Virus record (IMG/VR): IMGVR_UViG_3300037124_000029
Coordinates: 1-54,832 of that record
DNA from: a virus
Taxonomy: Duplodnaviria > Caudoviricetes
DNA: 54,832 nucleotides
Strand: one strand, 5' to 3'
Below, one piece after another: positions 1-51,822 of this stretch. The position numbers and the translations under genes were made by a program. Below the pieces are notes generated by a model that saw only the letters and a program-made list of their open reading frames with translations, ran no database searches and was not told the origin of the DNA. Numbering within the stretch: position 1 is the first letter of the stretch; every line of letters starts with the position of its first letter.

Positions 1-127
1 TTCTGGCAAATTGTTTAAAAATGTCGCGAAATTTTTCAAGTAAACATTGTGCTTTTTGCAATCTTCAACATAATTAGAAATTATAGACATTAAAGATTTT
101 TTTGTCTGTCCAGATTTCAATAATTTT
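1..127. repeat. 127-bp terminal overlap (circular assembly junction), copy 1
   Basis: Identical to 54706-54832; an ORF continues in frame across the junction; implies a 54,705-bp circle. Confidence 0.95.
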
Positions 128-615
128 TCAATCTTACTTTTATCTTTCGAAGACTTACCAGAAGAAGCTCCCCTGATAGGACATTTGCTTGGATAAAACT
201 TATATATTTCTTCTATATCTTCTATTACTGTACCTTTAACTGTTACTGTACCTGTACCTGTAACTATTACTGTTGACGTTTGCTCTCCTTCGTTTAACGA
301 TTTATTACGATTATCAACGGTCGTTGAATTTCGTTCAACTGATTCTTGTTTAGCTGCCTTACGCTTCTCAGCGCTTATTCTACCAGCTTCTTTTCTTTGT
401 TCCTGCTTCTTTTTCCACTTAGATAAATCTCTTTTTAACTGTTGTTTAATCGGTTCAAAAGTTAATTCGATTATTAGATCATCAGTTTTAGGTTCCTTAT
501 CATTAACATAATTCAATATGTGTTTGAATAATTCCCCTGCCTTTTCGTTAGGCATTTTATCTACTGTATGTATCAGATCGCAGTATAGAACAAATCCTTT
601 TTTTTCTTGTGCCAT
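1..615 (-). CDS. Replication initiator protein, 5' part (DUF6291-like N-terminus); continues at 54705..54541, 259 aa in total
   Basis: Own translation from ATG at 615: MAQEKKGFVLYCDLIHTVDKMPNEKAGELFKHILNYVNDKEP...AGRISAEKR, then a low-complexity VIVTGTGTVTV linker; lies directly upstream of the primase-helicase. Confidence 0.75.
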   Translation of the reverse strand, partial: MAQEKKGFVLYCDLIHTVDKMPNEKAGELFKHILNYVNDKEPKTDDLIIELTFEPIKQQLKRDLSKWKKKQEQRKEAGRISAEKRKAAKQESVERNSTTVDNRNKSLNEGEQTSTVIVTGTGTVTVKGTVIEDIEEIYKFYPSKCPIRGASSGKSSKDKSKIEKLLKSGQTKKSLMSIISNYVEDCKKHNVYLKNFATFLNNLPE

Positions 616-650
616 ATTAACATATACGTAAATGTTTTGATAAAAAAAAT

Positions 651-821
651 CTATAAAAGACTACCATATTTTTCCATAATCTTTTTTCTTTCTATAGAAT
701 CAAAAGAATTATTCTCTATTTTTTTTGGAAATGTAACCCTATTGGAGCCAATAAGATCAATAATAGATTGTCTTTTTACTCCATATTCCTCAATTAATAA
801 TTTTACTTTATCTCTAAACAT
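651..821 (-). CDS. Small 56-aa putative HTH DNA-binding protein (below the ORF-track cutoff)
   Basis: Own translation MFRDKVKLLIEEYGVKRQSIIDLIGSNRVTFPKKIENNSFDSIERKKIMEKYGSLL; has its own promoter. Confidence 0.55.
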   Translation of the reverse strand: MFRDKVKLLIEEYGVKRQSIIDLIGSNRVTFPKKIENNSFDSIERKKIMEKYGSLL

Positions 822-841
822 ATTAATTTAATTATTTTACG

Positions 842-872
842 CAAATGTAAATTATTTTTATAAACTTTCAAA
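842..872 (-). promoter_or_regulatory. Bacteroidota-type promoter for the HTH/replication genes
   Basis: TTTG-N19-TACATTTG on the - strand. Confidence 0.6.
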
Positions 873-1175
873 TTTTTCCACAGCTTTTTTTAGAGATCTG
901 AAAGTCCAGGCCCAGACACCAAAGTCTTTCGCCCTTGGATACATTTCTTTCTTCTCAGTGTCACTATAAAGGCGTTTTTCGAAGTCTATGCATAATGGGG
1001 TCGTTTTTCTCTCAAAGACCTCGAAATGGCGAACCCCTTCATCAAAAACGGCATATATAAATCCTTTGTCGTTGAATTGAAGCTGTACAAACCTCATTCC
1101 GGCAACTTCTCCGGTTCCTAAAAATTCTTTTTCTAATACGTGTATCATGATGTTGTTTTGTTCGTTATCGTACAT
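858..1175 (-). CDS. Hypothetical protein (start probably ~1148)
   Basis: Co-oriented ORF; the first codons overlap an intergenic repeat element. Confidence 0.7.
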   Translation of the reverse strand: MYDNEQNNIMIHVLEKEFLGTGEVAGMRFVQLQFNDKGFIYAVFDEGVRHFEVFERKTTPLCIDFEKRLYSDTEKKEMYPRAKDFGVWAWTFRSLKKAVEKFESL

Positions 1176-1198
1176 GGTATTTATTCGCGTGTTAGGCG

Positions 1199-1405
1199 TT
1201 ATTTATACTCTTTTATAAATTTAGCCTTATAAAGCTTACTCTTTTCTGTTAATCCCTTCTTTTCCCATTCATTTAATTCTTTTTTTGTAAGTAAGTAAAA
1301 ATCCTGCCTTCCAAATTCTTCACATCTCTCATGTAAAATAAAACAACGCCTAACACCAAATATAGGCAAATTGCCGAGCCGTTTTTTAAGTTTTGTGAGT
1401 TTCAT
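1199..1405 (-). CDS. Hypothetical protein starting inside an attC-like site
   Basis: ATG lies in the hairpin loop; ORF reads through GTTAGGC in frame. Confidence 0.55.
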   Translation of the reverse strand: MKLTKLKKRLGNLPIFGVRRCFILHERCEEFGRQDFYLLTKKELNEWEKKGLTEKSKLYKAKFIKEYK

Positions 1406-1474
1406 AATTGTATCTTTTTTATCAAGTTTACACTAAATTTCAAGGGCAATCAGCCCATATTATTTCCGTTATGC
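1348..1474 (-). mobile_element. attC-like recombination site (127 bp)
   Basis: - strand GCATAAC-GGAAAT-AATATGGGC-TG-ATTGCC ... GGCAAT-TT-GCCTATATT-TGGT-GTTAGGC: inverse core, imperfect hairpin and GTTRRRY core; overlaps the stop of ORF 1469..1975. Confidence 0.6.
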
Positions 1475-1975
1475 CTCATTTAGTTCAATAACAGTTTTAA
1501 GAACTAATCCCATACCATCAGCTTCTTTTGCAAAATGCTCCATTGCTTCAACTAAAGCGTTACTTTTATCTTTTGCATTCAATATTAAGCACCTGAGCAT
1601 TATATTTGTGGCATTTTGATACACCAGTGAAACAGAAAAACGAGGCATAACACTATCTATATGTAATGCTTCTTTCTCCGTAGTTACACCATTCGCTCCA
1701 TCTAGCGCTTCATGTCCAATTTTATCTCTTATCCAATTGTCTTTAAATTCTTCAATATCAAAACAAGTTACATCAATACTTTGGTAACTGTTTGCATCTT
1801 TCCAGAATTGTATTAAGTCTTGCTCATTAAATCCGCTCATTCCGTATTTAAGGCAGTATTCCGCAAAATCAGTACATTCTGCACTATCATGTGTTGGCTT
1901 GTTGCTGTTAGTTGTGTGGTGTTCCCCGCTCCATTCTTTATATAACTCATCTAGTTTTCCTCTGTTAATTTCCAT
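1469..1975 (-). CDS. Hypothetical protein, apparent chimera with a cassette-derived C-terminus
   Basis: Reads through GTTATGC at 1645-1651 (ALHIDSVMPRF); stop lies inside GCATAAC. Confidence 0.65.
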   Translation of the reverse strand: MEINRGKLDELYKEWSGEHHTTNSNKPTHDSAECTDFAEYCLKYGMSGFNEQDLIQFWKDANSYQSIDVTCFDIEEFKDNWIRDKIGHEALDGANGVTTEKEALHIDSVMPRFSVSLVYQNATNIMLRCLILNAKDKSNALVEAMEHFAKEADGMGLVLKTVIELNEA

Positions 1976-2032
1976 CGCCAGTAAATTGTTTGTTTGTTAT
2001 GTACTATGTTTATTCTCGTGTTGTAGCCAGTA

Positions 2033-2395
2033 CTACATACATGTCTTTATCCATGTTTCAAAAGCATTAATAAACGGTTCTGTATTCTTGCCGCCAGCCC
2101 ATCCTGCAAATCCTATAAACTCATCACCTTTTATACTTTGTGTGTTAAAAGATATAGCCTCTCTACGCTTAAAATAAAAACCGTCAACCATCAAGTAACA
2201 ATTCTTTATGGTTCCATCCTCTTTGTATGTCACATCCTGTTTACGAAGCTTGCACAGCTTCATTTTTAGCTCATTATCTGAATTATTTAGCTCTGATTTT
2301 ATACAACGTATAAGTTGCGCTATATCTTTAGAGCCTATATCACTGTATGTAATTCCACTTTGTTTGTAAAGTTCTCTGGCTTCTTCGTTATTCAT
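2033..2395 (-). CDS. Hypothetical protein
   Basis: 120-aa co-oriented ORF with FIGFAGWA motif. Confidence 0.7.
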   Translation of the reverse strand: MNNEEARELYKQSGITYSDIGSKDIAQLIRCIKSELNNSDNELKMKLCKLRKQDVTYKEDGTIKNCYLMVDGFYFKRREAISFNTQSIKGDEFIGFAGWAGGKNTEPFINAFETWIKTCM

Positions 2396-2415
2396 TTTTT
2401 ACTTTTAAGTTGTTT

Positions 2416-2649
2416 TTAGCCTATTATAATTTTCAATTCCTGTTCGCTTCCGTCATCCCCCTTTAATACCAAGTGTTTACCCTCTTTTACCTGTTTCATT
2501 ATCTCTTTGGCTATTTCGAGGGCTGACGATACTACCCTAGTCCGGCTTTCTTCTCCAATTATTTCCCCCAAGGTAGAAGCGGTTTCCAAGCTTTTTCCAC
2601 TTAGGATCATGCTCACCTTAGATTTTTGTTGTTTAATTTTATTTTCCAT
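2416..2649 (-). CDS. Putative ribbon-helix-helix DNA-binding protein
   Basis: Beta-alpha-alpha pattern (KVSMILSGKS...SRTRVVSSAL); paralogue of 39251..39505. Confidence 0.5.
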   Translation of the reverse strand: MENKIKQQKSKVSMILSGKSLETASTLGEIIGEESRTRVVSSALEIAKEIMKQVKEGKHLVLKGDDGSEQELKIIIG

Positions 2650-2650
2650 G

Positions 2651-2695
2651 TGTTGTTTCTTTATGCAATATACGGACTTTTTTTGGTAATTGCAA
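2651..2695 (-). promoter_or_regulatory. Degenerate copy of the repeated promoter cassette
   Basis: + strand tgttgtttct...caatatacggacttttttt...ttgcaa shared with the copies at 8147, 10363 and 50305. Confidence 0.55.
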
Positions 2696-2716
2696 TAGAT
2701 ATATAACTATAAAACA

Positions 2717-3229
2717 TTATTCAGTCAATCCCGTTATGAATTTTAGTAACCGGGCCAGTTCTTCGTTTCTGTATGCATGTGATAAGTAATTTACCGGGTT
2801 TTTAAGGTTGTGCTTGTTTGCCCGGATATGCTCATCGCAAGCTTTCGATGTTAAAAAAGCGTTACCGTACACATACATTGTATCTTCATTATACACTTGA
2901 AAACCGGCCGTTTCTAGAGCATCGTTTACCCATAAAATATCTGTTTCATTATCAATTGTTTCGGCAACATCTTTATATTCCGTATTTTCAAAACATTCCG
3001 GATTATCCTTTATCCATTTTATTTTTTCTTCATCTGTCCTTATTTCTGTTTCATATTCTGAACTGTACCAAACCTCTTCGCCTGACCCTGAATGAGCAGG
3101 TATTTTTATAGTTTCTTGCACTTGAAAAAAGCAAGGAGATGCAGTATCTCTGTTATCCTGCTCCTTTATTTCTTTTGATAAGTTCATCAAGAACTCATAC
3201 GTTTCGTCTGTTACTTGTATATTTTTCAT
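2717..3229 (-). CDS. Phage hypothetical protein
   Basis: 170-aa co-oriented ORF. Confidence 0.7.
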   Translation of the reverse strand: MKNIQVTDETYEFLMNLSKEIKEQDNRDTASPCFFQVQETIKIPAHSGSGEEVWYSSEYETEIRTDEEKIKWIKDNPECFENTEYKDVAETIDNETDILWVNDALETAGFQVYNEDTMYVYGNAFLTSKACDEHIRANKHNLKNPVNYLSHAYRNEELARLLKFITGLTE

Positions 3230-3453
3230 TTTTATACATTTTTAGTGAGCATTCACCATTATTTTTGCATTTACCTTTTTCCCTGTATTTACAATGAAAT
3301 GTTGTATCTCCACAATAGATTAAATTATCTGCCATTTTTCATGTTTATTTTAAAGATTCATTTCTTCATCTTCAATGATAGGTGCTTTTTCAACTATACA
3401 CACAAACGCAATTGCACATATTACTAATATAACCGCTATAATTATTATTGCTT

Positions 3454-3681
3454 TCATTGTATCTTATTATAGATTTTTAACACTTCTACACTTATTGATC
3501 TTAAATCATCAGACTTTTTCCTTAGGCACTTCTTTATTATATCTTTCTCGGATAGATCAGATACTATTTTTAACTTTTTATCCCCGTTCAAAGTTGCTAG
3601 ACAAAAGGCAAACTGATTAGAAAATATGGTTTTATCAACAACAACACGAGGCTTTATAGGCAATTTACGCTTTTTTATCAT
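3454..3681 (-). CDS. Hypothetical protein
   Basis: Co-oriented, overlaps its neighbour. Confidence 0.55.
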   Translation of the reverse strand: MIKKRKLPIKPRVVVDKTIFSNQFAFCLATLNGDKKLKIVSDLSEKDIIKKCLRKKSDDLRSISVEVLKIYNKIQ

Positions 3682-3883
3682 GGATAGACGTAATTCCTGT
3701 TATTTGGGCGTGTTTCAAAATTATCTCTGGCTCATTGCCGTTAACGTCAAATATGGCATTGAACTTTGTTACAGCTACTAATTTAGCCGTTATATCAGCG
3801 TTAAATGTCGTAGCATTTCTTTTTATAGTGTATTTAAGCCTTACCATTTTGCCTTCAAACACTTTTATTTCTTTTTCTTTCAT
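3665..3883 (-). CDS. Hypothetical protein
   Basis: Co-oriented ORF with A-rich leader. Confidence 0.6.
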   Translation of the reverse strand: MKEKEIKVFEGKMVRLKYTIKRNATTFNADITAKLVAVTKFNAIFDVNGNEPEIILKHAQITGITSIHDKKA

Positions 3884-3907
3884 AGATTTGTTTTAAAAAT
3901 ACCGGGC

Positions 3908-4645
3908 CTATTGACTAAAAGCATCTGAGTTTGAATAAACGCGCCCTAGATGTTGGAACTCCCTAATGAAATTAAATCTTTTGGCCCCAAAATACATTAT
4001 AATCTGAGCCCTGTCATTGCCTTTCTTTTGTTTCCCATTCGGCTGATAAAAACTTAAGCGGCCTTTCGGTAGGCATATAGCGGTTGCATATCCTAATAGT
4101 TTTTGAGATGCAGCCGTGTCCGTGTTGTTATTTGTAAGTACAATTGCCTCAAATCCATGAATAAACCTTTGACTTAAAAAAGTATCCACGGCCCTGTCAA
4201 AGTTACCTCTAGAATATGGCGGGTTCATGAAAAGCGTATCGCAGGCCCAATCTTGTTTGTGGCAATCATCTTCCTTGGAAAAAAACCATTCAGCATTCAC
4301 GAAATTATCGTTCGCGAATTTGCAACTGAACGGATCTAGATCGATGTCGCCCATAACATTGCGGGCCAAATCTGCGATTTCAGGAGGGGTGTAATATTCG
4401 TCACCCGTGGTTTCGTATGCAAGCGTTAAAGAACTGGAAACTACATCCACCTCATAGCCTCCAGAAGCGTTTTTGTCCGTGTAACCGGTTATGTAAAGTT
4501 TTACGGTTCCGCCAGAAATTCCTATAGAATTTTCTTTTATCTGCCGGATTGCGGTTTTTTCGGTAAAAAAAGGTTCTTCCACAAGGAAACCTTCAACTAT
4601 TTCTGATGTCCCTGCCTTTATTCCACTAAATACATTTAGTCCCAT
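3908..4645 (-). CDS. Phage DNA N6-adenine methyltransferase
   Basis: DEYYTPPEI, DIDLDPFS and catalytic FMNPPY motifs, KGRLSF. Confidence 0.85.
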   Translation of the reverse strand: MGLNVFSGIKAGTSEIVEGFLVEEPFFTEKTAIRQIKENSIGISGGTVKLYITGYTDKNASGGYEVDVVSSSLTLAYETTGDEYYTPPEIADLARNVMGDIDLDPFSCKFANDNFVNAEWFFSKEDDCHKQDWACDTLFMNPPYSRGNFDRAVDTFLSQRFIHGFEAIVLTNNNTDTAASQKLLGYATAICLPKGRLSFYQPNGKQKKGNDRAQIIMYFGAKRFNFIREFQHLGRVYSNSDAFSQ

Positions 4646-4684
4646 TTTTTTTGTTTTTCTGGTTTAATAATCAATTAATATTTG

Positions 4685-5095
4685 TTATAAAGCGTACCTT
4701 AAACACGCGTTTCTTTTTTTGTTTCTAGCCTGGTATGATAATTTAGCTTTAGGGCTTTCATTTATGCCATTTTCTAATCTTTTTGAGGCCCTTAAATCTT
4801 TTAATTTAAGTGAAATACTTCTATCTAAGCTATCATATTTATGTTTAAATAGTTTGTCTGTCTCTAAAAGATTAGATATAACTTTTTCTGCATGCAACAC
4901 GGTCGCGTGGTCTTTATTCCCAATCATTTCCCCAATTTTTACTAAAGACAAACATGTATGTTTACGCGCTAACGACATAGCTTCTTGCCTTGCTGTTACT
5001 ATTTCACGCTTCCTTGTTTTTTTTAGCATATCTTCAACGCTAATATCTCTATTTTCCGCTACAGTATCAACAATTATCTTTAAAATTAAATCCAT
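4685..5095 (-). CDS. Stand-alone DnaA C-terminal (domain IV) HTH protein
   Basis: RKREIVTARQEAMSLAR...SLVKIGEMIGNKDHATVLHA matches the DnaA domain IV signature. Confidence 0.85.
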   Translation of the reverse strand: MDLILKIIVDTVAENRDISVEDMLKKTRKREIVTARQEAMSLARKHTCLSLVKIGEMIGNKDHATVLHAEKVISNLLETDKLFKHKYDSLDRSISLKLKDLRASKRLENGINESPKAKLSYQARNKKRNACLRYAL

Positions 5096-5101
5096 GTTTT
5101 G

Positions 5102-7180
5102 TTAAATTTTATAAAAATACCCTTGAAACCTTGTTACATTTAGACCGGGGGCTTTTATCAATCCATCACCATTGCCTGTTAGTGTTTCAGCTCCAGGCTC
5201 ATCGATAACTACTTTAGACGATACTTCTTTATCTACGCTAAAGCATATTTGAACAGGGAAATTAACTTTGATATCACCGCTAACAATTTTAACAGATGCC
5301 CGTTGCGTTGCTGCAACAATGTTAAATCCAGCTGCTCGCCCTTTTTGTGCCAACATCTGAATGTTTTCTTGTAAAGATTTGTCAGTACTGGTATGCACAT
5401 TTTTCATTTTTGGCAGCCCATTTTTGTACATTCCGACTGTTTCCATGCTATAATTTTTTAAAGCATTCCCGCTTCGTGAGAGCATAAAAGCGTCCGCAAA
5501 TTCATCAAAAATTATAAGTTTTTTAGAATATTCACCATTTTCATAACGATCATTCATTTCCTCAACCAACATCATAGCTTCTAATTCTATATCTGATATA
5601 TCAGATACTACTTTTACAAATGAAGGAAGAGGTAGTTTTTTAAATTCGTTCTTGGGATCTAAGATAACAATATCTTTTATCCCGGCTTCAATGGCATACA
5701 TAAGTGTTGATATGAGGCATACAGATTTCCCGGAACCGGTTTGGCCACATACTAAAACGTGCGGAGTTGCTGGACTGTTTAAATCCCAAGCGATAGTATT
5801 ACCAAGATTATCAACACCAATAGGTAAATTAAACCCATTCAATTCTTTGGTATCCCATCGCAATATATCATCACTATTGTGAGCTGTTTCGATTCCCACA
5901 TAAGATTTCCCCTCATACACAAAAAGATTTTTTTGAATCCTAACGTTAGGCTGGTTCAAAGCGTTTGCGATGTCTAAATTATATCGCATCACTTTTGTAA
6001 TAGCTGTCCCGGCACTCACTTCAAGTAAATATGTTTTTGAAGAGTACCCCTCTAATTCGTGAGCCACCTTGGCAGAGATACCAAGCGTTCTCAATACATG
6101 TTCTATTTTTTCGCTGTTGGCCATATTTTTATTGGTTAAATCGTATGGAATAAATTGTTCCGTATATTTTTTAAAGTTTTTCAAAACATTTGGGCTTGCA
6201 GAAGCAAGCGACACATCTCGTATTTTCCTATGTCTTTCCCGGATAAGATCCTGGTTCTCTAAGAGAATGAGATCGTCGGCTTCTGCTAGCATAGTATTTG
6301 TCCAAAAATCGAACAATTCAGCTTTATCTATTAAATTATCTTGATCGTTTATCAGGTAAATATAATCGGGATTTGAAATTGCCTCTATCATTCTTTTTAC
6401 AGCTTCGTATAACATACTTTCGTAAAGTATACGTGACGACTTATCGAGAACTACAGTGTATTTCCCCAATTGCTTGGAACCATCTCGGTTTTTTGAATAT
6501 TTATTCTCAATAAACCAGACCTCGTCTACTTTTACATTGTACCTGGTTTCGTAGCCGATTGCATATGTTATAGCTTGCTTTGAATCTACCAACCCTATCT
6601 CTGATTCGTTTGTAAATTTAGATCTGGACTTGTGATCTATAATAACAACCTTACCGTCTTTTGTTTTAACCGTTAAATCAATCTTAAGATGACAAGGTAA
6701 AGGTATTTCGACTCCATTTATAACAACAAATTCTTTTATATACTCTTCTGCACCAATAATTTCATCTATTTCATCCAGATATACATTTATTTCAGAATAG
6801 AAGTTGTTCAAAAGCGAAACAACCGTTTTTTGTGCCTTATCAATGCAAGATTGTACGGTAGGCGTTGTTTTCTGAATTTTCCATTTGGCTGCATCTATTG
6901 AATCAATGTATTCAAATGCCTCATGTTCTAAGGTTACTATGTCGTGTTTTACGCCTTCATCCTTAAAAGATGAGAAAAAATATTCCAAAGCTGCATGATA
7001 AGCTTGCCCAGAGACTGTTGTAGACGATAGCCTATGTGGCATATTGTATATATACTGCATCTCAAAAGCTTTTTCATTTCTTGCGAATGTAGAGACTTTT
7101 GAATATGACCAGCTATATATTAAATAATTCGAAAAATGTTCTTCAAGCTCATCGTTAGTGAGCAACTTATATTTATTCAT
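5102..7180 (-). CDS. PD-(D/E)XK nuclease fused to an FtsK/SpoIIIE ATPase
   Basis: N-terminus: SYS, GQAYHAALE, KIDL...IIDHKS, QAITY. C-terminus: PHVLVCGQTGSGKS, IFDEFAD, KGRAAG, ATQR, GAETLTGNGDGL. Confidence 0.85.
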   Translation of the reverse strand: MNKYKLLTNDELEEHFSNYLIYSWSYSKVSTFARNEKAFEMQYIYNMPHRLSSTTVSGQAYHAALEYFFSSFKDEGVKHDIVTLEHEAFEYIDSIDAAKWKIQKTTPTVQSCIDKAQKTVVSLLNNFYSEINVYLDEIDEIIGAEEYIKEFVVINGVEIPLPCHLKIDLTVKTKDGKVVIIDHKSRSKFTNESEIGLVDSKQAITYAIGYETRYNVKVDEVWFIENKYSKNRDGSKQLGKYTVVLDKSSRILYESMLYEAVKRMIEAISNPDYIYLINDQDNLIDKAELFDFWTNTMLAEADDLILLENQDLIRERHRKIRDVSLASASPNVLKNFKKYTEQFIPYDLTNKNMANSEKIEHVLRTLGISAKVAHELEGYSSKTYLLEVSAGTAITKVMRYNLDIANALNQPNVRIQKNLFVYEGKSYVGIETAHNSDDILRWDTKELNGFNLPIGVDNLGNTIAWDLNSPATPHVLVCGQTGSGKSVCLISTLMYAIEAGIKDIVILDPKNEFKKLPLPSFVKVVSDISDIELEAMMLVEEMNDRYENGEYSKKLIIFDEFADAFMLSRSGNALKNYSMETVGMYKNGLPKMKNVHTSTDKSLQENIQMLAQKGRAAGFNIVAATQRASVKIVSGDIKVNFPVQICFSVDKEVSSKVVIDEPGAETLTGNGDGLIKAPGLNVTRFQGYFYKI

Positions 7181-10948: not shown

Positions 10949-11185
10949 TTATTTTTTTGATTTGTCCATATGTGCCCTTCCCGCAACTATTCCTAGAATT
11001 GTTCCTCCAAAGGTTATCCATTGCACAGCAGTTACGCCTAAAGCAATAGGGCATATAGGGCTAACAAGCAACAAAGCCACGCTTGAAGCCGTCCCGCAAA
11101 TGTTACGGATCTTTTTCCACTTTGGGCTTATCGTGCTTGACGATAGCCTTTCCTTTATCTCTTCTTTTATGTTTATTTCTCCCAT
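10949..11185 (-). CDS. Small membrane protein (holin-like)
   Basis: Two hydrophobic segments, basic C-terminus, near the endolysin. Confidence 0.5.
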   Translation of the reverse strand: MGEINIKEEIKERLSSSTISPKWKKIRNICGTASSVALLLVSPICPIALGVTAVQWITFGGTILGIVAGRAHMDKSKK

Positions 11186-11613
11186 TTAAGCCACATTACA
11201 AATGTAAGTAGAAACATTCCACCCCTTAATATCATTATCTGCCATATTTTTACCCCGGACAATATATTGTTCCAAAAGTCTGTAGTGCCTATATGGGAAA
11301 TCTGTAGTGCCGTAAAAATATTGAAAGACAGATCAAAAAGGGCTATTCTTAAAAACCAGTACGTAAGGGCCAATAAAACGACTACACGCCAATTTATAGT
11401 ATAACTTCCCCCGCCAAATACTTTAAGGTTCCATACGCGAGCATACACAAGCGGCAAAGCAAACATTACGGCATGCGCCACCTCTTCTATTGCCTTTGAT
11501 ATTGCTTTATGCCCTTCGTAAAAAAGAGCATCCGTAAGGGCTAATAAAATAATTATAACCGAATAGGATACCGGTATTATAAATTGTTTCATATGTATCT
11601 TTTTATTAGCCAT
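11173..11613 (-). CDS. Multi-TM membrane protein in the lysis region
   Basis: About 4 hydrophobic segments. Confidence 0.6.
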   Translation of the reverse strand: MANKKIHMKQFIIPVSYSVIIILLALTDALFYEGHKAISKAIEEVAHAVMFALPLVYARVWNLKVFGGGSYTINWRVVVLLALTYWFLRIALFDLSFNIFTALQISHIGTTDFWNNILSGVKIWQIMILRGGMFLLTFVMWLKWEK

Positions 11614-12257: not shown

Positions 12258-12578
12258 TTACTTATTTCTGTTAATTTCACTCTGATACAGGAACTGAACC
12301 ATTTTAAACATTTCGTCAAAACGTCTTTCGGTATTTTTATGAATCTCTTCATGAGAAAGTTTGTACGTTTCGACTTTTAAATCAACTTTGGATATTTCAG
12401 ATTCAATCTTTGAATCTACTTTAGATACTTCTGTGTTAACGTAATCTTTTGAAGCCATGTTAGCCTCATGATCTTTTTTCATCTTCCGGAATGTCGCTCT
12501 TACCGCTACAATAGAAGTCACAACCCCAGTAATTGTGACAAACAATGCTATTATAGATACTATTATTCTTGCTTCCAT
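12258..12578 (-). CDS. Putative holin/antiholin (single N-terminal TM plus coiled coil)
   Basis: N-terminal hydrophobic helix; directly upstream of the endolysin. Confidence 0.5.
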   Translation of the reverse strand: MEARIIVSIIALFVTITGVVTSIVAVRATFRKMKKDHEANMASKDYVNTEVSKVDSKIESEISKVDLKVETYKLSHEEIHKNTERRFDEMFKMVQFLYQSEINRNK

Positions 12579-12870
12579 TTACGCCAATTAAAATAACTGA
12601 TATGTTAAATGTTTTGATTGCAGAATCATATATCATATTTATGATATCTATTATAGACATTGCGCCAAACATGGAAACAGGTATTAAATTTATTGGTTTT
12701 TTTGTGCCTAAATATCTTCCTAAACTTATCAAAGCAATACTAAGACAGATATAAACAAAACATATTTCACTAAAAAATCCAACGAAGTAATGCCCTTCCC
12801 TCATTAAAAAGAAAGGGCATATACCTATAATCGCAAAAACCAGTCCTGATATATAGAATAATTTATTCAT
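12466..12870 (-). CDS. Multi-TM membrane protein
   Basis: 3-4 hydrophobic segments; overlaps the next gene. Confidence 0.55.
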   Translation of the reverse strand: MNKLFYISGLVFAIIGICPFFLMREGHYFVGFFSEICFVYICLSIALISLGRYLGTKKPINLIPVSMFGAMSIIDIINMIYDSAIKTFNISVILIGVNGSKNNSIYNSIVCHNYWGCDFYCSGKSDIPEDEKRS

Positions 12871-12876
12871 AATAAA

Positions 12877-12960
12877 TCAAACCTCTGGTACAGCATGATC
12901 TCCATCATCATCATCTTCATCGTCGTGTGGTAAGCGAAAATGCCATTCTTCATTTTTCAT
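12877..12960 (-). CDS. 27-aa acidic peptide
   Basis: Own translation MKNEEWHFRLPHDDEDDDDGDHAVPEV; A-rich leader; stop lies just before the next ATG. Confidence 0.5.
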   Translation of the reverse strand: MKNEEWHFRLPHDDEDDDDGDHAVPEV

Positions 12961-13016
12961 AATGTCTGTTTTTTAATTAAACGTTATTAATAGCCGTAAA
13001 GTTATGTATTTTTTTA

Positions 13017-13925
13017 TTATAAATCGTAAATAACAGTATAGCTTGTCCAAGGCGATACATCATATCCGGTAGCGCCAACCGGCACATGTATTTCATTTAT
13101 GTTAAACAATGCATTAGTGCCAGTTGATGGAGCTATGTCTATATAAATGTTCAAATCATTTGATATAGTCCCAATATAGAACCAATTAGCCTCTATGCTT
13201 GTAACTTGCGAGTTTATATTTACGTCATTTGCTAACGCTCCGTAAAACATGCCTACAGGCAAAGCAGTTACATTAGCAGATACATTAACGGTTGTTAGAT
13301 TTGTGTTAAACCTGAAACTATTCCGCCCTATATAGGTAATGTTAGCTGGGATATCAAGAACGCCTGTAAGATCGGCATTCCAAAAGGCTGCCGTATCAAT
13401 GTCAGTTATGCCAGTAAAATCGACACTGGTAAATTCAGTGTCCCTAAAGGCATTCGTACCTATATATGTTAATGTAGACGGAAAAGCAGGTATAGGGCCT
13501 GTAGCGTTATAACACCCACAAAATCCACATACTATATCTGTTAAACCAACTTCACCAAATGAGGTTATTCCCGTAACCTTCGCTGTATCGCCCGTAAAAT
13601 CAAAAGACCATGCGGTCATTGTTCCAGTGATAGATATCATATATTCACCTCCAGCAGCGTAAGTATGCGTAATGTCAGGATCATTATAACTAGTAATTTC
13701 TGATTCGTTGCCGTCTCCCCATTCGGCTGTCAAATCGTAAGTACCAGAACTTTTAAGAGGTAAAGTGAACGAATCCCCAGTACCTAGATCAGTATCTATT
13801 GTTATTGCAAAGGCATCTTCATCAATTGCGGCTTCTGTATTGGCCAATAAAATATCAAATGCCTGTCCTTTTACAAAGGAAGCTAATAATAAAAAAAGTA
13901 ATATATTAAAATGCTTTAACCCCAT
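13017..13925 (-). CDS. BspA-type leucine-rich-repeat/PKD-like protein with signal peptide (candidate adhesin)
   Basis: LTYIGTNAF, ITDIDTAAF, ITYIGRNSF repeats; WGDG...THTYAAGGEY PKD-like motif; start 13925 MGLKHFNILLFLLLASFVKG|Q. Confidence 0.75.
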   Translation of the reverse strand: MGLKHFNILLFLLLASFVKGQAFDILLANTEAAIDEDAFAITIDTDLGTGDSFTLPLKSSGTYDLTAEWGDGNESEITSYNDPDITHTYAAGGEYMISITGTMTAWSFDFTGDTAKVTGITSFGEVGLTDIVCGFCGCYNATGPIPAFPSTLTYIGTNAFRDTEFTSVDFTGITDIDTAAFWNADLTGVLDIPANITYIGRNSFRFNTNLTTVNVSANVTALPVGMFYGALANDVNINSQVTSIEANWFYIGTISNDLNIYIDIAPSTGTNALFNINEIHVPVGATGYDVSPWTSYTVIYDL

Positions 13926-14469
13926 TCTCTTGAGCATCAATAAATTCCTCGTCATATTGTCCCATCAATTCTGCTTGCGCAGACATATCTAAAATTTGCT
14001 TAATCTGAGTGCCTGTAAGTATGCTGCCTATCCACATTTGTGTAAGGGTATAACAATATCCGTTATACGTGTAAAGGCCTGCCCGGTTGAACCAAAACGC
14101 GTAATTCATTGTCTGTAATCCTGTTGAGCTTACGTATTGATAATATGGAAGAGATGTTGATACATTAGAAGCCAATGCCGATTCGGGAAATTTTAAAACT
14201 AAAGTGGCACCGGTTACCGATCCGTCATTATTTAATATGGAATCCAATTCTGCTTCGTCCGGGTTCCATTTTATCAGATCCACGGTATACATCGTGTTTC
14301 CGTTGGTTTTTACCGGGTTAGAGAAAGTCCCGTCAAAAACATTGTTATACACCATCGCGAATAGTGAACTGTCAACTTTTGCTTTTTGTGTTTTGATAGT
14401 AACACGTTGGGCGTTTGACGTAAGGCTAATAAATAAAGCCATAAAATAAAAGATAGCAATTTTTTTCAT
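13906..14469 (-). CDS. Signal-peptide protein in the tail-fibre module
   Basis: MKKIAIFYFMALFISLTSNA|Q. Confidence 0.7.
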   Translation of the reverse strand: MKKIAIFYFMALFISLTSNAQRVTIKTQKAKVDSSLFAMVYNNVFDGTFSNPVKTNGNTMYTVDLIKWNPDEAELDSILNNDGSVTGATLVLKFPESALASNVSTSLPYYQYVSSTGLQTMNYAFWFNRAGLYTYNGYCYTLTQMWIGSILTGTQIKQILDMSAQAELMGQYDEEFIDAQENGVKAF

Positions 14470-14474
14470 GATTA

Positions 14475-17400
14475 TTAATTTTGATTTACAAATACTGTAT
14501 ATATTACCCTGCTAGGTGATTTTACAAACTGCACATATGAACCGGCTTCTGATCCTGTATCAAATTCAAGTGTATTGTATTTTGTGCCCCATCCGGAGCC
14601 AACAGATATCGTGTGAGATCCTGTCGCATCCTGGTTTATTTCTAATGTAGAAGTACCATAAGGAAGCCCAGTAATATTTATTGTTATGTTGCCTGTTAAT
14701 GTTATATATCTATTGTGAGGATTTCCATCCGTAAAATCTATGCTTTTAGTTGAGGAATAAGTTTCCTCATACCAATTTATTTCAATCTCACCGTTAAATT
14801 CGGCTTTGTCGCTTACATTCATAGTATCTCCTTTAATTTTATCAATTGTAGCACTATCGGAAACTATACTATCAGATTGCACGCTTTCAGTTATTATATT
14901 ATCTATATTAAAAGTACTAGTACTAGTACTTAATGTTGCTATAGGATTATTAGAAGTATTTCTCCAAGTAAAATCAATTACTCTTACATCTAATTCTCTA
15001 TCAACTAAAGACAAATAACCACCATTAGTACTTGTTAAATATAAGTTTGGCGAATTTATATTTATTTGGCCAACACCTTCACCTCCTAACTGTATATAAT
15101 CAGGTGTGGTTGACGAATAGATTGTTGTATATTCCGTAGTACCAGTAGGTTTTATAATGTATATAGGATTATCAGATTTTGTTCCAATCCACAAGGTATC
15201 TTCACTTGCTATTCGAAAATGACCATCAAGATTTAAATCTGTTGTCAAGTTTGTAAAGCCACCATATGTATTTATGTATAAATTACTCCCAGAACCACTT
15301 CTATTTATACCTAACCCGAAATATTCAGTCCATGAGGGTAGTGTCAATAATTTAATGTCAAAATCATTATCCAGGCCCGTGCCAATATTAAGGTAATCAT
15401 TGCTTCCAAAATATTTTTTTTCTATCAATATGTCGTACCCTTCAGGACTCTTGATTTTTGATGTCGTTACGCTATCGTTAAAAACTGCCTTTGCCGCTAC
15501 TACACTATCAAAGCTGGTGTTATGTACAACGCTCACTACGCCTGCTGAATCTTTAAACGTATTTTCCCTAAATTCGACAGAAGTTTCTGCATTGTTGACA
15601 AATAAAATTTTATCCCCATCTCCTGAATATGAGTTCGGGGTATCGCTCAAATCCAAAAAAGATCCTGCACTTTCACCTCCTTTACTTCCCCCTCCTATTA
15701 CTCCGCCTCGCCAATCTATAAAATCAACTGGATCTCCAAGCTCGTTTGTAGCGCTCACAACCCTAGCTTTAACAGAGTTTGCGTAAGAATCAGAAGTTTG
15801 ATAAATAATCGAATATAACAATATCGATTCACGGCCTGGGATGGCTCTTTTTAATATTTCTTTACCTTCTACTAAGGCGCCATCTTCTGCATCTGCTTTA
15901 AGCGCGTATTTATTTTGACCTACTACAGCAAATATTTTAAGCGAATCTGCAATATTGTTAAGGGCGAATATATGGCATAACACGAAATTGTTATTTGTGA
16001 CAGTTACCAACGTGCCTGTTTCAACATCGTTATAAACCAACCGGCCTGTTGAGCCAACCCCGGCTGTCATGTCTGTTAAAACAGGAAATCCGGGTTCATA
16101 TATCCTTCGTGCTAAATTCAAAGTTCCTGACAAATAATATATAGGAATATTATCGCCTTTTTGAATAGAAGGTGTTGTTTCAAATATATCCTCATTATTG
16201 AAGCCACCTGACGTTACATTAAATTGAGCTGTCGTATCAAAATCGCCATCCCCATCTGGTGTAATTCCCGTTATATTAATTCCCGTGGAATACAAAGCCC
16301 CAAGTGTAAAATGAAGATATTCATGTATAAAAGGATTTATATTATATGTATGCCGTTGATTTCCCAGATATAAATGTACGTCATCGGTAGCATTCCAATA
16401 AATTTGACTTACAATTGTAAAATTACGATATATATCCCTAATTTGAGATTCATTAGCTTGATATATCGTTTTTATAGAATCTTGATCATAATAAATTGTA
16501 TGTAGGCCTTCTATATCAGGAATTTGAATTGAATCAACATCAATTGTATATTTTGAGCCATCTTGATAAAAAAGGAAATCGCCACCAACTGGCTCTATTT
16601 TAAAATAACGCGTTGCATCATCAAAGCTTAAAATTGTATATGAATTTGAATAATCAGGAAACCCGAAAACTTTTACCGGCTCCCCTCTACTGTCTTGCTT
16701 TAATGCCCATGTAGTGTCAGATGTTGGTATTATTGATACGGATGAATTATTAACATTATTAGTCAAAGTATTCACCTCGTTAATAGTTTGACCATTAAAT
16801 GCGTTAAGAGTATATTGCCCTTTTCCGTAAAGTATGAATATAATTTCTTTTACATCATCTGTGTAGTTAACTAAAGCAGCATCAGGCAGATTAATATTTA
16901 TTTCGCCATTATCGGCATTTACTATAAATATTTTGTTTTTTTGATATTCTGAACCTAGCGTTGTGTCATTGTTGATAAATTCAATTTCATTAATTGCCGC
17001 CCCTCTTCCGTAATTAGCCGTATCTACGGTAATACTTCCGCTACCAATACTGCTCATGTCAACGCTTATTTGGCATTCTCCGGTTATTACACCTGAATTG
17101 TTCAGATATTCTACATTGTAAGTAATATAATTTCCTGAATCTGAGATGGGCCCATTTATTTTATAATTTATATAATTTGTACCGTCCGAAATCGAAACAA
17201 AGGCCCCGGTATCAGCTATCACAATAAAATTAGATTTATCCTCTGAAGATTTATCAAAAGCATCAATGTATATTTGCGTCACATTTGAATATGTGGCACT
17301 ATTGAACCTAAAATTACCAGCACCTGGCCTTTCATTAACGATCAATGTGCTGTAATTGTACACGTAATTGAAAGGTAAAAAAAGCTGTGATTCGTTTATT

Positions 17401-42695: not shown

Positions 42696-42742
42696 TCTGT
42701 CTTATTGTTTTGTTCGTTATAGTACATTACGTTTATTCTCGT

Positions 42743-42838
42743 GTTGTAAGTAATTGATTATTCGTCAAATCCTACACTCCCCATTTGCTCTATCTGCTTT
42801 TTCAGTTCTTCATTTTCTTTTTGCAAACTACTTACAAC
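42743..42838 (-). mobile_element. 96-bp cassette bounded by complementary core/inverse-core sites
   Basis: + strand gttgtaagta (42743) and tacttacaac (42829-42838), a 10/10 inverted match; encodes the C-terminus of 42758..43036. Confidence 0.55.
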
Positions 42839-43036
42839 AATGTTTGTAGGCAAAGATTTTTTGTTTATTTCAACATCAAGATCCAAGGGCCCCAGGAATT
42901 GTTTTAGCCATTCGACTTTGTTCTCTACAGTAGAGAGTTTTGAGGCAAAGTCTTTTGGCTTATAGCCCCTTTCTTTACAAAAGGAAGCCTTACTACCGTA
43001 AAGCTCCTTTATTTTTCGTTCGATAAGTTTAATCAT
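42758..43036 (-). CDS. HTH-like protein with cassette-derived C-terminal tail
   Basis: GSKASFCKERG HTH-like start; reads through GTT GTA AGT. Confidence 0.6.
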   Translation of the reverse strand: MIKLIERKIKELYGSKASFCKERGYKPKDFASKLSTVENKVEWLKQFLGPLDLDVEINKKSLPTNIVVSSLQKENEELKKQIEQMGSVGFDE

Positions 43037-51570: not shown

Positions 51571-51822
51571 AATATTGTTTGTTAGTTATGTACTACGTTT
51601 ATTCTCGTGTTAGCCACGCTAAAATCTAACATTACAATATCCACTTTCCCACATTGCACGTTCTAAAGCTTCATAAGCTTCATCTTCTGTCATTTGCTCG
51701 TAGTCTTTTACTGTGCATACACAAAACTCGCACTCAGATCCTACTTTGTTCGTTGAAACTGTACCCATCACATAACCATTTTTTACTGTTATTTTCATAT
51801 TTATTTTTAATTACTGTTAAAA

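Follow-up and report, generated by a model that had tools for sequence, protein, structure and literature searches.

The window, by which we mean the whole 54,832-nt stretch of phage DNA that was analysed, carries two units that, with a probability of somewhat more than one half (roughly 0.55), belong to a gene-cassette family that is widespread among phages of Flavobacteriia and related Bacteroidota and whose junctions would be structure-specific recombination sites. The best reading of the family as a whole is that of a new, integron-like cassette system that is defined by structure.

An earlier note, made from the letters of the window, had described two cassette-like units with self-complementary ends, and this description is borne out: all four complementary 10-mers are present at the positions that it gave, and they extend to repeat pairs of 16 nt in unit 1 (1189-1204 and 1341-1356, 15/16 complementary) and 14 nt in unit 2 (1468-1481 and 1638-1651, 13/14 complementary). 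Both units, the spacer between them and their two ORFs lie on the minus strand. Unit 1 (1191-1354, 164 nt) encodes residues 18-68 of a 68-aa ORF (1199-1405), which is thus made of a spacer-derived leader and the unit 1 body; its 5' arm (1341-1354) is GTTAGGCGTTGTTT, read V-R-R-C-F, and its 3' arm (1191-1204) is AAATAACGCCTAAC, in which the first TAA is the stop. Unit 2, also called module C (1468-1651, 184 nt), encodes the last 61 residues of a 168-aa ORF (1469-1975); its 5' arm, in sense orientation (1638-1651), is GTTATGCCTCGTTT, read V-M-P-R-F, and its 3' arm (1468-1481) is AAATGAGGCATAAC, read N-E-A-stop. As had been claimed, the stops lie in or beside the inverse core (TAA at 1469-1471, within TAAC, for the 168-aa ORF; TAA at 1199-1201, 8 nt inside unit 1, for the 68-aa ORF), and in both ORFs translation starts ahead of the junction and continues across it, with GTT as an in-frame Val codon.

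Between the units lies a spacer of 113 nt (1355-1467), an attC-like imperfect hairpin bounded by TAAC (1468-1471) and GTTA (1351-1354). Its stem halves (1445-1461 and 1359-1375), which were placed by the fold centroid and by covariation over 20 spacers, form an imperfect stem of 17 bp with 14 Watson-Crick pairs, two G-T pairs and one mismatch. The loop (1376-1444) contains the ATG (1403-1405) of the 68-aa ORF, and the 3' stem half encodes the end of the 17-residue leader of this ORF. The array of the window is minimal, as it consists of two cassettes with a single spacer; the upstream one of the two cassettes is fused to an N-terminal part of 107 residues. Elsewhere in the window there is a third element of the same architecture (42743-42838, 96 nt), which has GTTG...CAAC ends and G/T at position 11, and in which GTT is again an in-frame Val, at codon 67 of an ORF at 42758-43036.

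Inverted pairs of this size can arise by chance, and the note had accepted that their being common in shuffled sequence would count against it. A bare 10-bp pair is indeed not beyond chance, the window having 32 perfect 10-mer inverted pairs (merged, gaps of 50-300 nt); pairs of 14 nt with at most one mismatch number eight, vs. 4.1 ± 1.9 in 30 shuffles. The specific architecture, however, is not common in shuffles, and the objection does not refute the observation. With ends of GTT...AAC, a G/T mismatch at arm position 11 and pairing at 12 or more of the 13 other positions required, three elements were found in the window, all on the minus (coding) strand, whereas 40 shuffles averaged 0.225 and never gave more than one, so that this combination of ends and fixed G/T is far beyond chance. 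A search of the window for the arm motif gave four exact matches, which are the four arms, and five matches with one mismatch, i.e. nine in total vs. 4.4 expected.

The 168-aa ORF is a mosaic of three modules, A (residues 1-45), B (46 to about 92) and, after a linker of 15 residues (about 93-107), C (108-168), each of which is found elsewhere with other partners. Module C (183-184 nt) is present at 10 further loci, where homology ends at both arm ends, and it stands behind at least nine unrelated upstream sequences, rather than having homologues collinear across the GTT, which would have spoken against a cassette. Partners are thus swapped at GTT, but in the closest relatives of the 168-aa ORF the shared block begins 45 nt upstream of GTT rather than at it. 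Within the arms of module C synonymous sites are frozen: invariant residues use 1.17 codons per site there vs. 2.35 in the interior. Neither ORF has a family in Pfam or PHROGs, an exhaustive search for homologues of the 68-aa ORF returned the ORF itself and two repetitive matches, tblastn of module C against GenBank phages gave no match, and the AlphaFold model of module C is one uninformative long helix (pLDDT 73, pTM 0.39).

Elements that follow the pattern T-GTTA-N6-G-N3 ... N3-T-N6-TAAC-R, in which the first and last 14-15 (up to 16) nt pair, recur in related phages. A relaxed scan of 280,805 nt of related phage DNA yielded 73 unique elements vs. 1.4 per shuffle, with 14-nt arms that form 11-13 Watson-Crick pairs; when arm position 11 was left unforced, it was G/T in 69 of them. 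A pattern search of IMG/VR with three free positions per arm found 23 loci, at 22 of which all three free pairs are complementary, with at least seven arm variants and with bodies that encode unrelated peptides. The record L038, for instance, holds an element with the arms of unit 1 but another body. More than 25 different arm sequences occur in the family, the variable positions of the two arms covary, and it is their pairing that is conserved. The junction falls within an ORF in 51 of the 73 cassettes, and GTT is an in-frame Val in 37, the motif being translated in three different frames. Tandem arrays are common, their cassettes being separated by imperfect hairpins of 56-123 nt bounded by AAC...GTT, and the arms that face each other across a spacer are no more complementary (3.52/9) than random pairs (3.57/9), as expected of chimeric sites in an array. 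Contigs from one DNA data set, probably that of the source sample, matched the window only through the source contig itself and through an intergenic repeat present in copies. A GC-richer phage group (L019, L033 and L039) holds a single element; there, a neighbouring gene is replaced between direct intergenic repeats in a manner that is PeSL-like rather than hairpin-like (PeSLs being the promoter-early stem-loop motifs of T4-like phages, reportedly treated by Arbiol et al. in 2010, PMC2839356).

The hairpin that the note had placed between the two units was upheld by the family rather than by its own fold: folded as a single strand of DNA, the spacer segment (1345-1477) has z = -0.15 on the plus and -1.01 on the minus strand, which is not significant, but this single-sequence result is superseded by covariation. 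In an alignment of 20 spacers 86.5% of cells are paired, vs. 66.7 ± 1.8 in shuffled alignments and 33-51% in slid controls, and the covariation score is 0.512 vs. 0.172, neither observed value being reached in any of 500 shuffles; 11 of the 16 stem pairs changed on both sides. Similarly, among 27 unique spacers the two halves of the same spacer score 24.4, vs. 12.3 ± 3.1 for halves taken from different spacers, and for 25 of the 27 the own score exceeds the 95th percentile of scores between different spacers. In the MAFFT alignment TAAC and GTTA alone are invariant, and the scan by design took spacers that run from TAAC to GTTA. Mismatches in the spacer stems, read on the sense strand, are 45 G-T, 18 A-C and 14 others, and in 57 of the 63 transition mismatches G or C is on the 5' half and A or T on the 3' half. 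Because of this skew, the G-T bias may reflect the AT-rich leader rather than selection for wobble pairs.

Judged from the genomes compared, cassette bodies and spacers, the latter with the start codon and leader peptide included, are shown to be exchanged between phages as separate modules. Since the global identity of 120-nt flanks has a noise floor of about 60-70%, the comparison was confined to pairs whose bodies are at least 94% identical, and bodies that are 94-98% identical were found with both flanks at noise level. A given body occurs with different leaders or N-termini and a given leader with different bodies, one leader type standing ahead of four different bodies. A spacer plus leader module of 188 nt is 91.5% identical between a Cellulophaga phage and a Polaribacter phage (Freya), and the homology stops exactly after GTT. 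The Cellulophaga phages phi13:2, phi19:3 and phi18:3 share flanks that are 96-98% identical around arrays of 4650, 1946 and 2961 nt, respectively; in all three the right flank begins exactly at TAAC, two cassette blocks common to phi13:2 and phi19:3 are in opposite order, and one block (block X) spans AAC to TAACGG. Out of seven sets of breakpoints, four are at AAC or GTT (the right flank, both ends of block X and the end of the block shared with Freya), and three are elsewhere, one directly following a conserved ATG, one some 14 nt ahead of an ATG and one within a leader, which fits short-homology recombination. A 75-nt difference between the otherwise identical L021 and L029, considered as a junction event, proved to be an ordinary deletion, by which a 5' arm and one half of a spacer were lost.

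Bodies assort independently of spacers: there is no linkage between a body and its downstream spacer, and the upstream spacer moved together with the body in one case, while in another a spacer moved alone. What moves thus differs from the integron unit of a gene plus its downstream attC. In most cassettes the junction is within a reading frame, so that exchange joins a leader or an N-terminal domain in frame to a body and creates a chimera.

The main rival of the cassette-system reading, which we regard as possible but rather unlikely, is that the stems have a role in RNA or in regulation by DNA (in mRNA stability or processing, as terminator plus promoter, or in translational coupling) and that the modules are swapped by ordinary relaxed or short-homology phage recombination at small conserved motifs (TAAC, GTT, AATTATG), as a structure-conserved analogue of the PeSLs of T4-like phages. 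Under this explanation selection would purge recombinants that break a stem or a gene, so that only breakpoints at junctions survive. Elements do lie on the coding strand of their own locus, the exception being one 1208-nt match in L037, which has the weakest score. The excess of G-T over A-C in the spacer stems would also suit RNA, the arm variants of module C include three wobble-compatible changes, and RNA folds of the two window units have z = -4.45 and -3.25. Part of the breakpoints are at the ATG region rather than at AAC or GTT, phi13:2 has an annotated RecT-family protein, and PeSLs show that intergenic stem-loop/promoter motifs can mediate modular shuffling (PMC4122927). However, the spacers of different cassettes share no sequence able to support homologous recombination (the 12.3 vs. 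24.4 above), an RNA stem alone needs no invariant GTTA/TAAC ends, and G/T is fixed in 69/73 elements although a synonymous T-to-C change would pair better. No role is known for a stem around a loop as long as about 700 nt that has the start codon outside, the G-T bias may stem from an AT-rich leader instead of wobble selection, and no Rfam family matches, the scan of window positions 1-4000 having given one sub-threshold, unrelated match only.

It is very improbable that the units are miniature, MITE-like transposons with terminal inverted repeats, which would insert at the ends of genes and thereby provide them with another C-terminus and stop codon. Their ends are indeed inverted repeats, the homology of module C stops exactly at the outer edges, and the 3' arms of both window units carry stops in all three frames; however, the same arms enclose unrelated interiors, the variety of arm sequences leaves no single transposase-binding end, no target-site duplication or flanking direct repeat was observed at the ends of the 73 listed elements, and spacers, whose ends are of the same type, are mobile too. 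Least probable of all, by our estimate, is a switch of the protein C-terminus by inversion of the segments, as in intragenic invertons or a shufflon: inverted repeats inside genes of Bacteroidota are a hallmark of invertons, and inversion of unit 2 would truncate the protein with a stop after seven codons (a plus-strand ORF at 1408-1491 ends ...SVMPHLVQ-stop), but the window phage has no invertase (no match to PF00589 or PF00239), copies across loci are in coding orientation save for the weak L037 match, the reverse strand of the bodies is closed, and arrays, spacer hairpins and partner swapping are left unexplained by inversion.

If the units are cassettes, the junctions would be structure-specific recombination sites that act when the DNA is single-stranded and folded, like integron attC sites or the hairpins used by Xer, and the fixed G/T (A/C on the opposite strand) would label the strand. 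The recombinase could be a tyrosine recombinase of the host or, in some phages, the product of the gene that follows the array. The window phage, by the two Pfam profiles named above, has no tyrosine or serine recombinase, and a tyrosine recombinase is absent in 3/5 other array-bearing records; a host enzyme acting on single-stranded hairpins would explain why most array-bearing phages lack one. In phi13:2 (gp038), phi19:3, phi18:3 and L027 a tyrosine recombinase gene does stand after the array, on the same strand. The recombinases next to arrays are of the Phage_int_SAM_5 type or a short, Xer-like protein that stays below the integron-integrase cut-off (145.6 vs. 265 bits), and they may serve just for lysogeny. 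Tentatively, and with less confidence than in the cassettes themselves, we suggest that Flavobacteriia phages may own a cassette system in which bodies and promoter/start/leader hairpins are independent modules, joined at AAC|GTT and recombined in single-stranded form by a tyrosine recombinase. Such modules would also pass between phage families of different host genera and, because the junction is inside the frame, protein parts would be shuffled as well as genes.

If this is true, the integron problem would have been solved a second time, again by structure-defined sites at which unrelated genes can be stored and rearranged, but in phages, both virulent and temperate, instead of bacterial chromosomes, and junctions within coding sequence that make in-frame fusions would be a feature that integrons lack. 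A cassette system would provide a concrete mechanism by which marine flavobacterial phages come to have "ORFan arrays" and a fine-scale mosaic structure, and would explain small phage proteins that share leaders or termini but not folds. Unless the nucleotide constraint on their first and last five codons is recognised, such genes will also be treated wrongly in gene calling and in the clustering of proteins. Cultured pairs allow direct testing, i.e. Cellulophaga baltica with phi13:2, phi19:3 and phi18:3, and Polaribacter with the Freya phages.

Among known systems, a canonical attC site has 5-6 nt between its inner and outer triplets and is about 57-141 nt long. Its most conserved positions are AAC and GTT, its loop has 20 to 100 nt, and sites within an array are chimeric (Cury et al. 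2016, PMC4889954). The phage arrays resemble integrons in their co-oriented, unrelated small genes, in palindromes of about 60-120 nt that vary in sequence while conserving structure and in which only AAC and GTT are fixed, in a spacer length that fits the attC size range, and in a cassette start that is complementary to the inverse core at the cassette's own end. They differ in an outer stem of 14-15 nt with a fixed G/T mismatch, whereas the canonical one has 7 nt, and in triplets that are 0-1 and about 4 nt apart. They also differ in that the start codon and leader are supplied by the spacer with the junction mostly within an ORF, that body and spacer are unlinked, and that there is no IntI, any recombinase following the array on the same strand.

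CALINs, i.e. attC clusters lacking an integrase, have been reported in lytic phages, and DNA methyltransferase cassettes occur both there (Qi et al. 2023, PMC9892861) and in L022 (array at 2038-6923), L037, phi13:2 and phi18:3. The Polaribacter phage P12002L, one of the CALIN carriers of Qi et al., has no elements of the present architecture. The stem-bounded family is apparently undescribed: no description of these elements was found in the literature searched, although the phages named here may overlap with the 17 CALIN phages of Qi et al., and in the accessible part of the Freya phage paper (PMC8776804) the terms "inverted repeat", "hairpin" and "cassette" have zero occurrences.

PeSL motifs (Comeau et al. 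2014, PMC4122927) are sequence-conserved and act by homologous recombination. They too are stem-loop and promoter-like intergenic units that flank small variable genes in hyperplastic regions and mark points of modular exchange between close relatives; in contrast, the spacers described here differ in sequence, with pairing and the AAC/GTT triplets alone conserved, and the gene bodies are stem-closed as well.

The CTX phage and other Xer-exploiting elements rely on Xer-dependent integration of folded single-stranded phage DNA. That system differs from the present one in integrating a whole phage rather than cassettes, and no dif-like site was identified here. The Mu G segment, the P1 C segment and the R64 shufflon change protein C-termini by inversion between fixed sites, and the Rickettsia palindromic elements are copies of one palindromic sequence inserted in frame. 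What they share with the phage cassettes is that modules defined by nucleic acid create protein variants from within reading frames; in the phages, unlike in any of these, the bodies are unrelated genes and their order changes.

The inverted repeats that the earlier note read as the ends of two tandem cassettes (its four 10-mers) lie where it placed them, and its stops, the GTT read as an in-frame Val codon and the ATG within the intervening segment are all as it described. The first pair extends to 16 nt (1189-1204 and 1341-1356, 15/16 complementary) and the second to 14 nt (1468-1481 and 1638-1651, 13/14). In the coding orientation, that of the minus strand, both read GTTA-n-GC-n-T-n-GTTT ... 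AAAT-n-A-n-GC-n-TAAC. Unit 1 (1191-1354) and unit 2 (1468-1651) have different bases at the three n positions, with compensation inside each unit, and the lone mismatch, a coding-strand G opposite T, falls at the identical place in both. Inverted pairs as such are weak evidence, because they are common: the window holds 32 ten-base pairs, and its eight 14-nt pairs that have a single mismatch compare with 4.1 +/- 1.9 in shuffles. The full architecture, in contrast to the 0.225 elements expected per shuffle, occurs three times, always on the coding strand. The third element (42743-42838, minus strand) has GTTG...CAAC ends, lacks a hairpin spacer alongside, and sits inside an ORF (42758-43036) with a weak PHROG match to 'transcription factor'.

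Among IMG/VR records the pattern, with 130-160 nt between its two halves, was found at 23 loci that enclose mutually unrelated peptides; all three free pairs are complementary in 22 of them, and the arms come in at least seven variants, that of unit 1 being one. A relaxed scan of the window and loci L004-L040, related phage and metagenomic DNA (280,805 nt in all), brought up 73 unique elements, 84-1241 nt long, where shuffles yielded 1.4 each. Arm position 11 was left unforced, and it is G/T in 69 elements, T/T in three and T-A in one. In 51 elements a frame already open upstream continues across the 5' arm as far as the 3' arm, with GTT read as Val in 37 rows, TTA as Leu in 11 and the third frame in four (one element counted twice), while the other 22 have no through-frame and the gene starts within the cassette. 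Each of the three frames is thus used to read the motif, which makes the motif a nucleic-acid signal. Only three contigs from 185,579 species genomes carry the pattern, all in MAGs, whose labels are Flavobacteriales, Cytophagales and Clostridium. Phages are essentially the only carriers of the family, with Bacteroidota as the likely hosts.

Elements often stand in tandem: ten in L022 (2038-6923), six in L016, and three to five in each of L040, L031, L027 and L037. Cassettes with a DNA methyltransferase gene occur at L022 2038-2775, L037 8702-9406, phi13:2 15597-16372 and phi18:3 (L050) 2934-4106, and such a cassette is usually the final one in its array. The spacers between cassettes are mostly 113-123 nt long, some 56-85 nt, and each is an imperfect palindrome: its stretch behind TAAC corresponds to the reverse complement of its stretch ahead of GTTA, and the stem sequence is different in every spacer. 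The two halves of a spacer score 24.4 against each other, whereas halves taken from different spacers score 12.3 +/- 3.1; the 95th percentile of such cross comparisons is surpassed by 25 of the 27 spacers. Twenty aligned spacers, including window 1348-1474, share a consensus of three helices. The TAACG/TGTTA helix is near-invariant (no variation at 4/5 pairs), and at 11 pairs of the two inner helices both partner positions have changed. Paired cells make up 86.5% (66.7 +/- 1.8 in shuffles) and the covariation score is 0.512 (0.172 in shuffles), neither being reached in 500 shuffles; slid controls gave 33-51%. Unpaired bases flank the outer helix asymmetrically (5' side about 5 nt, 3' side about 1 nt). 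The loop and the 3' half of the stem often hold a start codon and a leader of 14-30 residues, which explains recurring leader ends such as ...EQCTIPS and ...ALNKGA. Arms flanking one spacer are complementary at the random level (3.52 vs 3.57 of 9).

The virus record (54,832 bp, direct terminal repeats, rated complete) carries nearly all its ORFs on the minus strand. Those of 105 aa (858-1175), 68 aa (1199-1405), 168 aa (1469-1975) and 120 aa (2033-2395), all on that strand, have no Pfam or PHROG family. The closest cultured relative at the DNA level is Cellulophaga phage phi13:2, at 68% over 129 nt only. This sole match of the region to a cultured phage (window 1300-1428 to phi13:2 11115-11261, i.e. 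L001 2501-2647; E = 4e-8) spans the leader, the 5' arm and the beginning of unit 1, and on the phi13:2 side lies within gp022, the true protein homologue of which is the 120-aa ORF (49% identity); protein similarity between the 68-aa ORF and gp022 was not significant. Elsewhere the window encodes a Dam-family methyltransferase (3908-4645) and a 692-aa protein (5102-7180) with a PD-(D/E)XK nuclease domain and FtsK/HerA-type ATPase domains. An intergenic motif, AACACG-n-GAATAAA on the minus strand followed by a conserved GTAC..ATAAC..AACAAA, stands 20-40 nt upstream of start codons. The 14-mer has four exact copies (1180-1193, 2009-2022, 42732-42745 and 51598-51611, plus-strand coordinates, read on the minus strand) and 11 with at most two mismatches, against 4.2 expected (reached in 0/100 shuffles). 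Unit 1 and the third element each have the motif immediately behind their terminal AAC, and a string resembling it comes after module C in L011. Its probable role is that of a phage promoter or another kind of regulatory site.

A search of 1.84 billion representatives brought up no relative of the 68-aa ORF. Three modules make up the mosaic 168-aa ORF: residues 1-45 (module A) have other continuations in proteins P0015 and P0033 and in an ORF of L005 (2992-3354), the part from Met-46 on has other C-termini in P0009 and P0026, and module C, its last 61 residues (VMPRFSVSLVY...ELNEA), follows many unrelated N-terminal sequences. The exact 168-aa protein is on two contigs, the longest of 402,633 bp as against the 54,832-bp phage record; a concatemer, a misassembly or a contig that carries a prophage might account for this. 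The copy of module A in L004 (3001-3141) has an in-frame stop (...HDSA*CTDFAEY...), so the module there is broken or separately translated. Module C DNA was compared in two viral and 10 metagenomic loci. In 11 of them the conserved block starts at T|GTTATGCC and ends at GGCATAAC, the flanks on either side are unrelated in wide comparisons, and the codon preceding the Val always ends in T although its residue varies. The twelfth, L015, has diverged arms with 11/14 positions paired, including one double compensated change. At residues invariant in 10 loci, 1.17 codons are used per site in the arms vs 2.35 in the interior; the arms are under nucleotide-level constraint. The window and L008-L011 have an extra 45 nt upstream of module C in common, and therefore the breakpoint among these closest relatives is not at GTT.

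Other modules change partners likewise. Four different bodies (L014, L035, L026, L016) stand behind the leader type KKTETEQCTIP-, further leader types precede two or three each, and conversely one body follows different leaders in L018/L035, L021/L024 and L020/L040. Where bodies are 94-98% identical (L009/L010/L011; L021/L024), similarity of the 120-nt flanks is at the noise level on either side, and one of the L022 spacers recurs in L040 between other bodies. Phage phi13:2 has at least seven elements (12437-16372), the last containing a DNA methylase, with gp037 and then the tyrosine recombinase gp038 downstream. Phages phi19:3 and phi18:3 have both flanks 96-98% identical to its own, enclosing 1946 and 2961 nt respectively, compared with 4650 nt in phi13:2, and two cassette blocks common to phi13:2 and phi19:3 (99.2% and 96.3% identical) stand in reversed order.

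Seven sets of breakpoints were inspected. The right flank starts exactly at TAAC in all three phages, behind three different 3' arms, and one common block runs from the preceding cassette's terminal AAC to its own cassette's TAACGG. Polaribacter phage Freya_1, which belongs to another virus family and has another host genus, also carries one 188-nt spacer-plus-leader block (at 91.5%); the block begins 4-5 nt past CAAC and ends exactly after GTT, with different bodies downstream. The remaining three sets break right after a conserved ...AATTATG, about 14 nt upstream of an ATG, and within a leader. The conserved right boundary of these arrays, TAAC-AAT-GTTA-TA-TAAC (phi13:2 16369-16385, L048; phi19:3, L049 from 3742; phi18:3, L050 from 4745), brings AAC and GTT almost into contact without an intervening cassette. 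It lies a short way ahead of gp037 and the tyrosine recombinase gene and might be an empty or founding site.

These comparisons show that stem-closed cassettes and hairpin spacers are under nucleotide-level selection for pairing, and that modules have been exchanged and reordered at the DNA level, often breaking at AAC or GTT, with in-frame chimeras as the outcome. The earlier note's observation thus holds and extends to a family, and its interpretation, a phage-borne cassette exchange that creates in-frame chimeric proteins and may use a host IntI-like enzyme, is partly supported. In the main alternative the stems would have an RNA or regulatory role, and modules would be exchanged by relaxed short-homology recombination with selection as the filter. 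This would account for the breakpoints near ATG and for the excess of sense-strand G-T pairs (45 vs 18), but leaves the invariant GTTA/TAAC ends and the fixed mismatch unexplained. By analogy we infer for enzyme and substrate an attC-like site-specific reaction, in which the fixed G/T (A/C on the opposite strand) would mark the strands of the folded site apart. A tyrosine recombinase is absent from the window phage and from 3/5 other records. Those that stand behind an array are of the SAM_5 integrase type (phi13:2 gp038 and the L027 protein, 36% identical) or a 267-aa Xer-like protein below the integron-integrase cut-off.

Qi et al. 2023 (PMC9892861) reported attC clusters without integrase in 17 phages, one a Polaribacter phage, and IntI1 acted on 5/6 sites; that Polaribacter phage has none of the present elements. 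The literature searched yielded no account of flavobacterial phages that have stem-closed cassettes with junctions in frame. The likeness to attC sites as published (PMC4889954) is fourfold: AAC and GTT are the sole fixed letters, hairpin structure is kept where sequence is not, sites within arrays are chimeric, and the start of every cassette is complementary to the inverse core of that cassette. Unlike in integrons, gene and downstream site do not move together, the geometry of the sites differs from that of attC, and most cassettes read across the junction; for these reasons, and with a recombinase lacking or non-IntI, we file the arrays as integron-array-like, not as integrons. The closest functional analogue is the PeSLs (stem-loop/promoter motifs) of T4-like phages (PMC4122927). 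The stem-closed cassettes are a new, integron-like variant for which a cultured system exists.
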